A stretch of 64,000 nucleotides of DNA from Candidatus Saccharibacteria bacterium CPR2 (GCA_021404905.1 QWHN01000003.1:23080-87079), one strand, 5' to 3'; shown: positions 31,397 to 36,716, numbered from the stretch's first letter. The notes: a model not told the origin generated them from the sequence alone. Program-made: numbers and translations.

Positions 31397-31483
31397 GGGG
31401 ATGTGGCGGAATCGGTAGACGCGCTAGCTTCAGGAGCTAGTGGGCATTTGCCCGTGGAGGTTCGAGTCCTCTCATCCTCACCA
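31397..31483 (+). tRNA. tRNA-Leu(CAG)
   Basis: Hand-folded cloverleaf: acceptor GGGGATG/CATCCTC, anticodon loop TTCAGGA, long variable arm TGGGCATTTGCCCGT, T-loop TTCGAGT, encoded CCA. Confidence 0.9.
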
Positions 31484-31624
31484 TTCGACTCGCTTTACTC
31501 GCCTATCTCATTCGATAATGGCGAAAAACAAATTTCATTCTTGGATTGAATATAGGTAATTGTTATTATTGATACATTCGTTAAAGCCATAAGAATTTAA
31601 ACTTTTTTGGGGGTAGAACAATTT

Positions 31625-33256: not shown

Positions 33257-33274
33257 CTCTCTCTGCGAAGAAGC

Positions 33275-33440
33275 TAGAACCCATTTTGAGAAAACGGCTG
33301 AATAAAACAGGCGTCAACCCAGAAAAAGCTTTAGCATTTTTTGAGATTTCCCCCGCCGAGATTTTTATTTTTAAGGAAAAGGTTTTTGTCGTGTAGTGCT
33401 GCGCTTGAAGCGCAGGTGGTTCGGGGCTTCGCCTAACTCG
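33275..33440 (+). repeat. GC-rich repeat (family B), copy X
   Basis: Aligns in inverted orientation with 36080-36290. The 30-bp core TTTTTTGAGATTTCCCCCGCCGAGATTTTT (33337-33366) is the exact reverse complement of 36144-36173. Confidence 0.85.
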
Positions 33441-33475
33441 TAAGTTTATCTCTGTTAATGTGCTACTATTAAACA

Positions 33476-34108
33476 ATGATTACAGTTTTAGCGAATTCAG
33501 CGAACGAAGCATGGCTCACAACTTTCAAAACTTTGATGAATGATGGGGACGAAACTGGCAACGATAGATACCTGCGCGATGAAGTAGCACTAATTGAAAT
33601 TTCTAATCCAGAGGTTGAACCCATAGATTCTCGTTTTCCTATGAGTCAAGCGGATGTTGACTTAATAAATAGATATATCTACACGGGTGAGAACGAAGAG
33701 AAAATAACACACGAATGGACGAAACTTTATTATCACCGGGCATTCGACGAGCCAAACTCTCAAATAGAATTCTTGATTAAAAAACTTAACGAAAAACTAC
33801 CGGCCGGAGAAACTCAAATTTCAATGTGGGATAAGAACATCGACCAAGACAAAAAGATATCGCCCTGCACACAGATAATATGGGCACGCATAAAGCATGG
33901 AAAACTTGAGCTACATGTTCATACAAATTCCTCTGATGCTTACAAGAAACTTTTAATGAACATCTTGGAATTTATCTCTTTACAGCACTATATTGCCAGC
34001 CGTATTCATTTACCGGTGGGGAAATATTATCACTTCATAGATTCCTGTCATTTACACCTCAAGGACAGCAACAAGATCCAGCTTCTACAAAGCTATTTAC
34101 AGAAGTAA
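33476..34108 (+). CDS. Short ThyA-family protein (thymidylate synthase / dNMP hydroxymethylase-like)
   Basis: SPCTQIIWARIKHGKLELHVHTNSSDAYKKLLMNI aligns with the ThyA catalytic block PC..QFyV.dGKLs..lyQRS.D...G.pfNI. Downstream, VGKYYHFIDSCHLH matches G......d.HiY. Only 210 aa. Confidence 0.55.
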   Translation: MITVLANSANEAWLTTFKTLMNDGDETGNDRYLRDEVALIEISNPEVEPIDSRFPMSQADVDLINRYIYTGENEEKITHEWTKLYYHRAFDEPNSQIEFLIKKLNEKLPAGETQISMWDKNIDQDKKISPCTQIIWARIKHGKLELHVHTNSSDAYKKLLMNILEFISLQHYIASRIHLPVGKYYHFIDSCHLHLKDSNKIQLLQSYLQK

Positions 34109-34112
34109 ATAT

Positions 34113-34241
34113 GGCAGTACTCAAATAGATCGTAGACACATCCATCTCGTAGAATAGGGTTTGTAAAAACAACTAACTACGAAAGGAGAGACAATAATGT
34201 CTAACCGTATTGGATCATCTACGATCTATTTGAGTACTGCC
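34113..34241. repeat. 129-bp element with perfect 24-bp terminal inverted repeats
   Basis: GGCAGTACTCAAATAGATCGTAGA (34113-34136) and its exact reverse complement (34218-34241). The 81-nt interior holds TAGAAT and AAAGGAGAG-N7-ATG. Confidence 0.9.
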
Positions 34242-34292
34242 AACTTAGTTCGGTTTAGGTCAGAAGTGGTAAACCACTTACAACAATTCTAA
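34197..34292 (+). CDS. Possible 31-aa small ORF starting inside the inverted-repeat element
   Basis: Strong SD GAAAGGAGAG 7 nt upstream of ATG 34197. Translation MSNRIGSSTIYLSTANLVRFRSEVVNHLQQF. It is below the track size cut-off and there is no homology evidence. Confidence 0.3.
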   Translation: MSNRIGSSTIYLSTANLVRFRSEVVNHLQQF

Positions 34293-34347
34293 CATTTACA
34301 CTGTTGTTTTAATATGCTAACAGATAATATCTGGTATAATAACACTA

Positions 34348-34728
34348 ATGAAACAGGGTAAAATCACACCCAATGGTGTTGTGCTTCATACGCACGAAAA
34401 CGCTACCGTCGTATTCTTGACTGAGCAGGGTTTTGACGTTGAGTTACTGCCACCAGTCCAACGCAAAGGCGCACGAACCCCTGATATTAAAATGCTCGAC
34501 GTTGAGTGGGAAATGAAAAGCCCAAGAAGCAACGGCAAATACACCATTGAGCATAGTTTCAGGTCAGCTCTTAAACAATCACCGTACATTATCTTTGATA
34601 TTCGAGGTAGCAAAATACCACAGCAAAAATGTATAGCCGAAATAGAGCGCCGTTTTAACGATTTCAAGAAAGTCAAAAGAGTGATAATCATCACCAAAAC
34701 ACGCAAACTACTTGATTTTAATAAGTAG
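34348..34728 (+). CDS. Small PD-(D/E)xK nuclease-fold protein, toxin-like
   Basis: E(16)...TPDIKMLDVEWEMKSP gives a D-x(n)-E-x-K arrangement. The 126 aa size and the following KQSPYIIFDIRGS block resemble stand-alone REase-fold toxin domains. Confidence 0.45.
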   Translation: MKQGKITPNGVVLHTHENATVVFLTEQGFDVELLPPVQRKGARTPDIKMLDVEWEMKSPRSNGKYTIEHSFRSALKQSPYIIFDIRGSKIPQQKCIAEIERRFNDFKKVKRVIIITKTRKLLDFNK

Positions 34729-34804
34729 ATTTAGTATAATTCCAGATAAGAAATGCGACCTCTGCTGTATAGCTCAGGTCGCATTTCACTTTTCAGAGGA
34801 CTTA

Positions 34805-35254
34805 CTATAAGCCAAGTAGTTGCTTCTTCTTTGTCGTAAACTCTTCTTCGGTTATGATGCCTTTTTCTTTTAATGTTGCTAATTTTTCAAGTTCATCTGC
34901 ACCGCTATGAGATTGTTGGCTACCGCTTGATTGCGATATTTTTGCTTCAATCTTTTCTTTTGCTTCAAGGAAATCTTTATTCTTTCTGGCGTGGAAGTTT
35001 ACAGTATTTTCGTCTGTGGTTGATTGCATAAGACCACTTTTAGCTTCAGAGCCACCTTTTAGGCTTAGCTGAAGATAGCCAGCAGTCATACCAGCTTTTT
35101 TAAGCTGAACAGCAACAATACTCGTGTAGGGTATCGTCTTATCACCTCGAAGCATACCGCCACCAAGCAAAAAGCCTTTCGCACCTCTTTTGATTATTAC
35201 GCCAGCATCAGTAAGTATAATCGTGCCGTTATAGCCTTTATATTCATCGTTCAT
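34805..35254 (-). CDS. Bacterial PH-like (DUF4429-type) domain protein with C-terminal SHOCT domain
   Basis: GTIILTDAGVIIKRGAKGF...IVAVQLKKAGMTAGYLQL (bPH-like). C-terminal ELEKLATLKEKGIITEEEFTTKKKQLLG is the SHOCT signature. Confidence 0.7.
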   Translation of the reverse strand: MNDEYKGYNGTIILTDAGVIIKRGAKGFLLGGGMLRGDKTIPYTSIVAVQLKKAGMTAGYLQLSLKGGSEAKSGLMQSTTDENTVNFHARKNKDFLEAKEKIEAKISQSSGSQQSHSGADELEKLATLKEKGIITEEEFTTKKKQLLGL

Positions 35255-35272
35255 TTTATCTAACCTATCCTT

Positions 35273-35875
35273 TTACAGCCCTACTGAATCTGCGCCATAA
35301 GTGGCTTGAGCTGTCGTGAATTTATCGAACACCAATTGATCGATCAGACCTTGCCTTGAGAAAGACGAAAACTCCATGTATGATTTCGCTTTTTTAGCAG
35401 CTTGTTCATTCCAGTCAGCACCCGCATTGTCTGCGCCATACACAGCGTCTGCATGAGAAAATTTGTCAAATTCCAGTTGTGCGACCAAACCATCACGAGA
35501 AAATCCTGCAAAATCGAGATAACTCTTTGCTTTACTAACAGCATTTTTCTGGCTTGTTGTTTCTGTTGGCTTTGCCGGTTCTTGAGGTTTTGGCTCTTCT
35601 GCTGGCTTCTGCTCTGTTTTTGTTTCCGCTTCTGTAGCCTGTTGTGCAGTTTCTTGAGGTGTTTCTTCTTTGCTTGCTGTATTATTGGTCTGAGGCGTGC
35701 TAGGACTAGCAAGCGAAGCGATTACCACAATGCCCACCAAAATGCTTACTCCTATTTTGGCTCCTTTTGCCCAATTAGTGTACTTCCACATTAGATACAA
35801 ACCTACTGGGAAAAAGAAAATTAGCAATAAGATTATTGCTGGTGTTTTTTCGTACCATTTAGTATTATTTGACAT
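35273..35875 (-). CDS. Membrane-anchored protein with two Ltp-type repeats (phage superinfection-exclusion lipoprotein family)
   Basis: ATG 35875 (MSNNTKWYEKT...), a TM hairpin and a Pro/Glu/Thr linker. Two repeats follow: KAKSYLDFAGFSRDGLVAQLEFDKFSHADAVYGAD and KAKSYMEFSSFSRQGLIDQLVFDKFTTAQATYGAD. The longer track start 36169 runs into repeat DNA. Confidence 0.7.
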   Translation of the reverse strand: MSNNTKWYEKTPAIILLLIFFFPVGLYLMWKYTNWAKGAKIGVSILVGIVVIASLASPSTPQTNNTASKEETPQETAQQATEAETKTEQKPAEEPKPQEPAKPTETTSQKNAVSKAKSYLDFAGFSRDGLVAQLEFDKFSHADAVYGADNAGADWNEQAAKKAKSYMEFSSFSRQGLIDQLVFDKFTTAQATYGADSVGL

Positions 35876-36079
35876 TTTTACTCCTTTGCTTTGGTTAATT
35901 ATATCGCCCGTTTGCGAGAACCAAAAAGCCCGCCACGAGCGGCAGCCGAAGCCACCCAATGCCGTTTCCAGCATTGACCACAGAAAGAAGTACTCATGAC
36001 GAGCTGTTTCTTTCTGTGGATTTGTAAACCATGCCAAGCTATTGCTTGGTTTAGGTTTATGAATTGATTGTACTATTTG

Positions 36080-36290
36080 CACCGCTGTTTTGCCAGATAT
36101 AGCGAAGCGCACCCGACCAGAAAACACCCTTTTCCAAATCCTAAAAAATCTCGGCGGGGGAAATCTCAAAAAATATGCAAAGGGTTTTTCTGGCGGGGCG
36201 CAGCGGGCAGACTTGCCCGCTAGGCGGCGGGGCTGAGCTTACACTTCAGCCTTAGCACTTCGTGCTAAAATAGGTTCTAGCCTTTTCGTA
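36080..36290 (-). repeat. GC-rich repeat (family B), copy Y, inverted relative to copy X
   Basis: 36144-36173 is the exact reverse complement of 33337-33366. Flanks align too (ccagaaaaaccctttgcat vs ccagaaaaagctttagcat; ggaaaagggtgttttc vs ggaaaaggtttttgtc). Confidence 0.85.
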
Positions 36291-36291
36291 T

Positions 36292-36378
36292 TGGTGCGCG
36301 AGAGAGGACTTGAACCTCCACGGGATTGCTCCCAACGGCCCCTCAAGCCGCAGCGTCTACCGATTCCGCCACTCGCGC
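36292..36378 (-). tRNA. tRNA-Leu(GAG)
   Basis: The reverse complement folds as GCGCGAG/CTCGCGC acceptor, anticodon loop TTGAGGG, long variable arm TGGGAGCAATCCCGT, T-loop TTCAAGT, and CCA. Confidence 0.88.
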
Positions 36379-36484
36379 GAATATTTCTTTATCAGCATAG
36401 GGGTCAGCTCTTAAAAAATCAATAAATTTATCACGCTTTCTCCGTAAGTCTAAAGATTCCACAAAAGAAATATCAGAAAATACA

Positions 36485-36595
36485 AAAATTGGAGCTTACA
36501 AGCAAGTTTGCTTGCTAGGCGGCAGAGCCGAGCTTCTCTTATTTAGCGGTTTGTCTCAGAATGGTTCTGGCTTCTTCATAGAGAGACACCAGAAA
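36485..36595 (+). repeat. GC-rich repeat (family B), partial copy Z
   Basis: gcttgctaggcggcagagccgagctt...ggttctggcttcttcata parallels gcccgctaggcggcggggctgagctt...ggttctagccttttcgta in copy Y. It lacks the 30-bp core. Confidence 0.65.
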
Positions 36596-36640
36596 TACTT
36601 TAAACTTTTAAATTTATACTTTATACTACCTCTATTCGAG

Positions 36641-36716
36641 GGTCTATAGCTCAGTCGGCTAGAGCGTCTGGTTTACACCCAGAAGGTCGTAGGTTCGAGT
36701 CCTACTGGACCCACCA
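36641..36716 (+). tRNA. tRNA-Val(TAC)
   Basis: GGGTCTA/TGGACCC acceptor, anticodon loop TTTACAC, T-loop TTCGAGT, CCA. Confidence 0.92.

Follow-up and report, generated by a model that had tools for sequence, protein, structure and literature searches.

A strain-variable accessory cassette between inverted copies of a structured element in a Saccharibacterium, probably a decayed member of a tRNA-linked cassette architecture

In the stretch of 64,000 nucleotides of Candidatus Saccharibacteria bacterium CPR2 analysed here (GCA_021404905.1, QWHN01000003.1:23080-87079; hereafter the window), a 2.8-kb segment with accessory-type genes lies between two inverted GC-rich repeats, or arms, next to tRNA genes. 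We consider it fairly likely that the genes of this segment are cargo in a cassette architecture that is specific to Saccharibacteria, is linked to tRNA genes and is accompanied in relatives by a large-serine-recombinase (LSR) element, and that the member in the window is decayed and without a recombinase. The window cassette is real and strain-variable, but probably immobile. Rather than an active inversion switch, it is best seen as the fossil of a broader system of cassette plus recombinase that seems to be undescribed so far. Sequence comparison establishes the membership of the arms in a family, the architecture, the presence or absence of the cassette among strains and the junctions of its deletions. 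Saccharibacteria and other bacteria of the Candidate Phyla Radiation have tiny genomes, and gene gain and loss in them are little understood.

By alignment, the two arms are copies of a Saccharibacteria-wide, structured, quasi-palindromic element of ~180-300 nt, which we name E. From outside to inside, E consists of a tip (TGGYR, a hairpin with the loop ATTTTACAAC, then GCTMGAACC), helices P1 and P2, and a long helix P3 with a loop of ~45 nt that bears a core; the oriented alignment places the core in this loop. Copies that we call "complete" have in addition P4, the partner strand of P1 (P1'), P5 and P6. The copies in the window and the adjoining tRNA genes are as follows.

33257-33436 (+): left arm, an E copy with a degenerate tip, A-box (GAAGAAGCTAGAACC at 33269-33283), P3 stem, core loop at 33337-33366, P3' strand, hairpin P4 (33399-33415) and a P1'-like strand
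33337-33366 (+): left copy of the core, the loop of the long P3 hairpin in the oriented alignment
36098-36291 (-): right arm, a full E copy of inverted-repeat type, with A-box, two small hairpins, P1 5' strand, P2, P3, core loop and P3'
36144-36173 (-): right copy of the core, from the sequence match
36292-36378 (-): tRNA-Leu(gag), whose 3' end touches the right arm
36411-36591 (-): third, degenerate E copy upstream of tRNA-Leu(gag), with an intact outer tip (CACCA, 36587-36591 on the + strand), A-box, P1 and P2, and a decayed core (36452-36480)
36640-36716 (+): tRNA-Val(tac), from the tRNA gene search

The original prediction had described an exact inverted match of 30 bp between arms of 170-210 bp, with a partial third copy beyond tRNA-Leu(GAG). 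The match is real and even slightly longer: the core 30-mer TTTTTTGAGATTTCCCCCGCCGAGATTTTT occurs exactly twice in the 64 kb, with no further match at up to three mismatches (expectation 0 from 100 shuffles), and the exact inverted identity extends to 31 bp (33336-33366 and 36144-36174). As to the length of the arms, homology holds over ~95 nt plus an outer block. Around the core the arms are 82% alike over 55 ungapped nt, or 78% over 94 nt with gaps (E 4e-14), and the separate outer block of 22 nt pairs 33266-33287 with 36267-36288 at 86%. The full 170-210 bp are attained only across a gap of ~45 nt, corresponding to helices P1 and P2, which the right arm has but the left arm does not. The left arm also lacks TGGTG, and the outermost tip of the right arm (TGGYR plus hairpin) is truncated and abuts the 3' end of tRNA-Leu.

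A covariance model of P1, P2, P3 and the core (R1), built from 24 copies in other genomes only, recovers the right arm at full length with 134.8 bits (E 1e-28), and the left arm with 55.5 bits (E 6e-11) at 33319-33389, covering model positions 53-128, that is, P3 and the core only. In other Saccharibacteria, more than 100 copies match the right arm at 75-93% identity, and the fold of this arm has a z-score of -5.8. The third copy, which sits between tRNA-Leu(gag) and tRNA-Val(tac), is genuine but degenerate: it scores 18.1 bits (E 0.015; 36411-36541, - strand) and resembles the left arm over 49 nt at 84% (E 1.4e-7) and the right arm over 28 nt at 82%. No other convincing R1 match is present in the 64 kb, the rest having E values of at least 0.09 or being reverse-strand echoes of the arms. 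Both neighbouring tRNA genes were confirmed.

The family was retrieved with a 19-nt core, which gave 59 stretches in a scan of one genome per species and 73 in a scan of metagenomes. By a test of the flanks, 107 stretches hold a genuine E copy, and those in named genomes are mostly metagenome-assembled genomes (MAGs) of Saccharibacteria; the remainder are chance matches in coding regions, of which ~4 were estimated for the genome scan from the size of the collection. Related MAGs carry one to four copies, and the window has three in 64 kb, all at one locus. The repeat is low in copy number and tied to tRNA genes and variable cargo; it is not a ubiquitous intergenic element, the possibility against which the original prediction had to be checked.

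The structure of E is carried by covariation. In 20 diverse copies, 93.8% of the cells are paired, compared with 80.6% in shuffles and ~41% with slid partners, and 22 pairs show double (compensatory) changes; in the P3 stem, for instance, CCAGAAAAACCC/GGGTTTTTCTGG stands in some copies and CCAGCCGCCCCC/GGGGTTGGCTGG in others. The arms match no Rfam family at the gathering threshold or at a permissive E-value (window and stretch L018). The 30 identical bases are, in the alignment, the most conserved block of the family, so that their survival in otherwise diverged arms reflects constraint on this part of E, not recent duplication or exchange. The strand on which E would act is not betrayed by its composition: folding energy and G-U counts are equal on both strands, and different helices favour different strands.

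Some candidate identities for parts of E were tried and set aside. As a sigma-70 promoter, the core offers TTGAGA as a possible -35 box, but no conserved -10 accompanies it, and the TGnTATAAT boxes of the cargo lie 27 to ~60 nt away. As a tRNA or tmRNA 3' end, the tip is not recognised by ARAGORN and its putative T-arm is unpaired; we treat its likeness to a tRNA end as mimicry, no more. The C-rich core might also pair with the G-rich ribosome-binding site of the LSR gene; no co-variation was evident, and the duplex output was uninterpretable. In several solo copies (L056, L051, L132, L146/L149), the outer flank presents in succession a tRNA 3' end, a palindromic terminator hairpin of 35-42 nt and the E tip, and the tip mirrors the tRNA end (AGCCA/TGGCT, CGCCA/TGGCG).

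In a number of relatives, E is found as a pair. Wherever two cores lie 0.3-6 kb apart, they stand in + then - order, facing inward (29 of 29 loci; the count includes this window, and a few loci are the same pair in two assemblies). Such pairs, in ~30 lineages, surround 0.9-3.6 kb of variable cargo, as a rule without a single difference between the arms over 140-210 bp. In the first 14 of the related pairs, the arms are exactly identical over 91 to 185 bp, and over at least 143 bp in 12 of them; the identity ends sharply at the TGGYR tip outside and just after P3 inside, and no target-site duplication was seen at 13 pairs. The cargo varies by species: Ldh_2 in one, a zinc alcohol dehydrogenase, a peptidase S58 with NUDIX or BtrH_N with PadR in others, among further genes. 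In one pair, a tRNA-Gly gene lies within the cargo (L065:2371-2446). No direct repeat of the tRNA adjacent to the LSR gene was found within the 8-kb related loci.

Usually one arm of a pair is extended as a "complete" E. This end is distal to the LSR gene in ~13 lineages and proximal in ~4, and both arms are complete in 2; in addition, L048 and L063 share a cargo gene that has opposite orientations relative to the LSR gene. Flips do therefore take place over evolutionary time. A plausible mechanism is homologous recombination between the identical arms, which would in turn keep them identical. We infer that gene conversion or flipping maintains the identity of the arms in relatives.

The LSR of the relatives is a protein of 526-580 residues with Resolvase, Recombinase and Zn_ribbon_recom domains; it was detected in ~30 E-bearing stretches, and where mapped its gene lies 200-280 bp outside one arm, with a 3' end that overlaps a tRNA gene on the other strand. 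By comparison of junctions, it belongs to an element that mostly measures 1.80-1.83 kb but reaches as much as 2.5 kb where passenger DNA is included (examples are L064:3365-5167, L050:4455-6265 and L048:3600-5406, and also L040, L031 and L065), bounded by terminal inverted repeats of 94-141 nt that are 94-100% identical. The right terminal repeat lies within the C-terminal coding region of the LSR, about its last 40 residues, and the left one contains terminator-like hairpins, followed by the TGGTATAAT promoter and a conserved, structured leader. This leader of ~110 nt (L064:3530-3642 and its equivalents in L031, L048, L050 and L065) has a G-rich ribosome-binding site and a long-range stem that is compensatory between lineages, GTGGAACCAAT.../...ATTGGTTCCAC in one and GTGGACACAAAC.../...GTTTGTGTCCA in another.

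The LSR element sits exactly between the E tip (...CACCA|) and the tRNA 3' end (|TGGTG...), and these two junctions are reverse complements of each other. The tip varies together with the tRNA, TGGTG going with Leu or Ile, TGGTA with Arg and TGGCG with Ser, with one exception in 20 loci. Since the family had been retrieved by its own core, the search was restarted from the LSR protein as an unbiased check. Next to the left terminal repeat, five of the six lineages so anchored show a perfect pair of E copies (167-210 bp) and one shows a partial E; at the right terminal repeat, all six have a tRNA gene.

Several variants of the LSR element were met. One stretch (L042:840-2640) has terminal repeats of the LSR type without a recombinase, and holds small open reading frames (ORFs) and a stretch 68% identical to the CdiA_C-like gene of the window (34327-34552). 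Possibly this is a derivative that is no longer autonomous and has toxin genes as its cargo. In the longer elements of 2.2-2.5 kb (L154:6228-8527, L063 and L033), passenger DNA lies between the left terminal repeat and the LSR gene; that of L154 includes a 2'-5' RNA ligase-like gene. Many of the public contigs that encode this LSR are 1.7-2.0 kb, the length of the element, which fits assembly breaks at repeats, multiple copies per genome or free circular forms. At L044:6150-7598, a second and distant serine recombinase (26% identity) lies just outside the far arm.

The cassette varies among strains, and its absence leaves informative junctions. Two Logan contigs (L008/L009) have a glcD 97.3% identical to that of the window and a flank from tRNA-Leu to ligA (LemA/HtpX/LigA) 99.1% identical, but no cassette, glcD and tRNA-Leu(gag) being only 230 bp apart. 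That the enclosed genes are accessory, as had been proposed, is borne out by so close a strain, with flanks 97-99% identical, lacking them. In the L008 allele, the left arm is kept through hairpin P4 and is followed by the outer 70 nt of the right arm, with the join at AGGCGGCGGGGCT. The endpoints in the window are as follows.

33414-33428 (+): AGGTGGTTCGGGGCT, an imperfect direct repeat of 36222-36234; left endpoint of the L008 deletion in a three-way alignment
36222-36234 (+): AGGCGGCGGGGCT, the complement of the P1 strand of the right arm; right endpoint of the L008 deletion

A second, independent case is L159, compared with L158/L160: the flanks are 98% identical and the recombinase is the same, and the cargo is missing together with the inner halves of both arms. 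What is left are the outer 88 nt of each arm, which meet within hairpin P2 and together form a palindrome. The junctions of L008 (P4|P1') and L159 (inside P2) differ, and each lies at a short direct repeat, which argues for ordinary deletion, not site-specific excision. As read from the alignments, the cassette-less alleles arose by deletion between short direct repeats that inverted palindromic arms necessarily contain. No allele was found from which the whole arm-cargo-arm unit is cleanly absent; the glcD protein of the window has no exact match on record, and no further alleles of the left junction were obtained.

Where it is present, the cassette is reproduced base for base in several independent assemblies from several samples. 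The unitigs that carry it end exactly at the two cores (33337-36173 in the window), as a repeat of 31 bp would lead one to expect, and look-ups with the cassette proteins returned only unitigs that break at this repeat. In L154, SBP_bac_5/tRNA-Leu(cag) on one side and glcD on the other enclose a cassette with the recombinase element; the window has only an empty 123 bp between tRNA-Leu(cag) and glcD (region 31397-31606), and its cassette is on the other side of glcD. The glcD neighbourhood looks like a hotspot with several alternative slots.

The segment between the arms of the window contains the following.

33476-34108 (+): short thymidylate-synthase-like (ThyA-like) gene, 210 aa; Pfam PF00303, E 5.8e-10; NCBIfam TIGR03283, 67 bits, below its cut-off
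34112-34242 (no strand): inverted repeat, perfect over 25 bp, its halves separated by an 81-nt spacer; lies between the ThyA-like and CdiA_C-like genes
34348-34728 (+): CdiA_C-like toxin-domain gene, 126 aa; Pfam PF18451, E 9.6e-15
34750-34787 (no strand): hairpin between two convergent transcription units, from the inverted-repeat scan; probably a bidirectional terminator
34805-35254 (-): DUF4429 (bPH-like) and SHOCT gene, 149 aa, by Pfam
35273-35875 (-): Ltp-like lipoprotein gene with two Lipoprotein_Ltp repeats, 200 aa, by Pfam
35941-36057 (-): LOOT small RNA (sRNA) gene; Rfam RF03000, 82.6 bits (gathering score 46.4), matching the whole model (positions 1-121 of 121)

The four accessory-type genes that the original prediction had named are thus upheld by Pfam, and its small inverted-repeat element is also there. 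An ORF of 31 codons (34197-34292; MSNRIGSSTIYLSTANLVRFRSEVVNHLQQF), preceded by an AAGGAG Shine-Dalgarno motif, overlaps the 25-bp inverted repeat, and this region is possibly a small gene that serves the toxin-like gene after it, for immunity or for regulation. A scan for defence systems with PADLOC gave weak, sub-threshold matches only. The LOOT gene, which had not been recognised before, lies between the Ltp gene and the right arm; the promoter/terminator scan places a promoter-like site at 36096-36067 and a terminator-like hairpin at 35946-35928. From the tRNA side, the order is therefore tRNA-Leu(gag), right arm, LOOT, Ltp, SHOCT, the convergent CdiA_C-like and ThyA-like genes, and the "complete" left arm. 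The same design recurs in L060 and L076, where LOOT stands directly behind the incomplete arm (L060 2491-2611; L076 504-623); in L076, an LSR terminal repeat lies beside the LOOT-side arm. LOOT may be a regular passenger of E cassettes. The reported absence of a recombinase is confirmed: tblastn finds no LSR homologue in the 64 kb, a scan of the same 64 kb finds no terminal repeat of the LSR element, and Pfam scans find no recombinase in the four cassette genes and four flanking genes.

We propose the following scheme. Two E copies face inward around variable cargo, and the tip of one of them abuts a tRNA 3' end. The tip mirrors the tRNA end, and the two together would form a dyad-symmetric, attB-like site for insertion of the LSR element, whose own ends would constitute a symmetric attP, so that the layout would follow the logic of attP x attB recombination. 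Such a scheme predicts ...GTTGCAAT|ATTGCAAC... as the junction of a circular LSR element and ...CACCA|TGGTG... as the restored junction of tip and tRNA. Recombination within the arms removes cargo and presumably exchanges it as well. The LSR element is missing from the window, so that tRNA-Leu(gag) is in contact with the truncated right-arm tip.

The window resembles its relatives in the R1 match, in the inward pair around accessory cargo and in the tRNA at one arm tip. Arms that are identical or nearly so over 140-210 bp, with an intact TGGYR-hairpin tip, and an LSR element between tip and tRNA are absent. We call the window copy decayed on four counts: divergence of the arms (78% over 94 nt), truncation of the right tip, loss of TGGTG, P1 and P2 from the left arm, and near-loss of the core in the third copy. 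The earlier suggestion of a non-autonomous cassette or remnant was close to the mark, in that relatives have the same layout together with an LSR element; its alternative of a prophage remnant did not hold, as discussed below.

Several points weigh against this reading. The window gives no sign of recombinase activity, with neither LSR nor terminal repeat within its 64 kb, and neither arm has an intact tip, so the junction of tRNA-Leu and the right arm is unconvincing as a present insertion site. The tip is a putative LSR half-site by its symmetry and co-variation only, and we infer the action of the LSR at the tip/tRNA site from these sequences. Loss, not gain, is the likely direction of change in L008 and L159, judging by their differing junctions. 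Because the core itself served to retrieve most members of the family, it looks more invariant than it is, and the LSR-anchored loci hold variants such as TTTGGATTATCCCCCGCCGA and GTAACTCTCCCGCCGT, differing at 1 to ~7 of 19 positions; the core is strongly conserved, not invariant. The scheme leaves the origin of the perfect inverted duplication of E unexplained, and likewise the role of the body formed by P1-P6 and the core, for which RNA and DNA-level functions are both possible.

Other explanations deserve consideration. The inverted repeats had been suggested to drive inversion, the cores or arms serving as crossover sites and the 2.8 kb flipping so as to switch two convergent operons, with a recombinase encoded elsewhere or RecA. 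The geometry is indeed like that of the Mu G and P1 C segments, and the relatives, with their identical arms, adjacent serine recombinase gene, "complete" ends on either side and the reversed gene of L048 and L063, lend themselves to it. However, the window arms share 31 exact bp within only 78% similarity, the identical block reflecting constraint, and no recombinase is present; even in the relatives, the sites that the LSR itself would use are the terminal repeats and the tip/tRNA junction, not the core. An exact scan of metagenome contigs for the flipped-junction sequence gave 0 matches, and the one unitig that reads across the left core (L005) has the orientation of the window. The ratio of distal to proximal "complete" ends is strongly skewed and not 1:1, and the cargo in most loci is an ordinary one-directional operon without the logic of two alternatives. 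We regard active inversion, of which there is no sign here, as quite unlikely. We also think it unlikely, if a little less so, that the arm-to-arm unit is a non-autonomous transposon with terminal inverted repeats of ~180 bp, moving as a whole and mobilised in trans by an LSR that recognises the tips. The sharp outer boundary of identity at TGGYR in all pairs would suit such a unit, as would the lack of target duplication, which is expected for serine recombinases, the perfect palindromic site that two joined tips would form, and the related cargo (CdiA_C-like, LOOT) in different species. Yet there is no precise empty site, since both cassette-less alleles retain outer parts of both arms with different junctions, and the cargo occupies syntenic places (the glcD and LemA/HtpX neighbourhood) in several species. 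Moreover, the LSR would pair terminal-repeat sites with tip/tRNA sites, and a pair of tip half-sites would offer it the "B" type twice; LSRs have attP x attB specificity and do not recombine two "B"-type sites.

It is also conceivable, though rather doubtful, that the arms are structured non-coding RNAs or 5' leaders, each facing its own operon. Their inverted arrangement would then be incidental, and the core would be a functional loop of the RNA, C-rich and perhaps pairing with G-rich ribosome-binding sites; such a role would be compatible with a decayed cassette. The six helices with compensatory changes, the conserved unpaired loop and the fold of the right arm speak for it. Each window arm also lies upstream of an inward-pointing unit, the left one before the ThyA-like gene and the right one before LOOT-Ltp-SHOCT; in 5 of the 8 loci inspected, the first cargo gene follows directly on a "complete" E, and several copies lie just downstream of a tRNA gene of the same direction, so that co-transcription is possible. 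On the other hand, both strands are alike in folding energy and G-U counts and the helices disagree on the strand, a symmetry that would suit a palindrome at the DNA level just as well. Neither E nor the sequence ahead of it showed a conserved promoter, Rfam offers no match, and in many loci the cargo operon runs into the arm, not out of it. A prophage remnant or an assembly artefact is very improbable. Ltp-type lipoproteins are typical of temperate phages according to their Pfam description, and adjacency to a tRNA gene is typical of integrated phages too; but neither the arm nor the whole cassette has DNA similarity to 50,697 phage records, 2.9 million viral contigs yielded a single match, the search of phages, plasmids and viral contigs found no similarity apart from the SHOCT motif, and Pfam recognises no phage structural or replication genes in the cassette. 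Its base-for-base recurrence in independent assemblies speaks against an artefact.

Beyond the decayed-cassette reading, it is tempting to go a step further, with a proposal that we offer tentatively, as possible and not as probable. E may represent a new class of structured nucleic-acid element, RNA or folded single-stranded DNA, that forms with the minimal 1.8-kb LSR element a natural "landing pad" system of Saccharibacteria. The tip and the tRNA end would be the target, the E pair an exchangeable or flippable slot, and the C-rich loop the functional contact, whose partner would be the recombinase, a host factor or a ribosome-binding site rich in G. On this view, the window would preserve such a slot as a fossil. 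Whatever the fate of this proposal, the comparisons reveal a recurrent architecture in ~30 lineages, in which a variable slot lies between identical copies of a covarying element absent from Rfam and is anchored at tRNA genes, together with a very small LSR element with unusually long terminal repeats, placed at a palindrome of E tip and tRNA end. If the recombinase sites are as inferred, a phylum that is hard to engineer would have its own compact, sequence-defined system for integration, which would also be a handle for finding strain-variable accessory genes (toxin-like, surface and metabolic) in metagenomes. The orphan LOOT sRNA gains a reproducible genomic context. For the window alone, the result is more modest.

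How does this system compare with those already known? We found no description of such an arrangement in Saccharibacteria or Patescibacteria in the literature. The nearest are the integrative elements of LSRs, namely phage integrases of the Bxb1/phiC31 type, SCCmec CcrAB/CcrC, Anabaena XisF and Tn4451 TnpX, which have the same set of Resolvase, Recombinase and zinc-ribbon domains as the LSR of the relatives. The best NCBIfam matches of the latter are CcrB, XisF and CcrC, all below the family cut-offs, and it is ~27% identical to phage integrases. As in those elements, the element ends and target flanks are dyad-symmetric (attP/attB), there is no target duplication and insertion occurs at the 3' end of a conserved gene. 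Unlike them, the element of the relatives is only 1.8 kb, with near-perfect terminal repeats of ~130 bp, the right one encoding the C-terminus of the recombinase, and the variable cargo lies outside the recombinase element, between inverted E copies; in the window, the LSR element is absent altogether. Of the features of tRNA-linked genomic islands, presence or absence among strains is observed, but no integrase gene stands beside the tRNA; the related loci show no tRNA-derived direct repeat, and the left-arm tip of the window is only a degenerate mimic of a tRNA end.

The invertible segments (Mu G/Gin, P1 C/Cin with repeats of 0.6 kb and e14 P/Pin, and also the FLP repeats of the yeast 2-micron plasmid) share long inverted repeats around a few kb, with a recombinase gene just outside one of them. 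In contrast to these, the recombinase of the E system is large and integrase-like, with sites outside the repeats, the cargo has no alternative gene halves, and in the window no flipping was detected and no invertase lies in or next to the segment. Integrons and cassettes flanked by miniature inverted-repeat transposable elements (MITEs), composite elements, REP/BIME and the Correia elements of Neisseria likewise have two inverted, non-coding, structured palindromes flanking accessory genes. E differs from them in its very few copies (one to four per genome, and three at the one window locus), in the absence of target duplications and in its tie to tRNA 3' ends and a serine recombinase element; the target-site duplications and many dispersed copies of MITEs and insertion sequences are not seen. 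Finally, the cassette sRNA is a clear full-length member of the LOOT family (RF03000), a separate gene of 117 nt outside the repeat, with its own promoter-like site and terminator. The main text of the paper on LOOT (Weinberg et al. 2017, PMC5737381) does not give its genomic context, and the placement of LOOT directly behind an E arm in three species (the window, L060 and L076) appears to have been previously unremarked.

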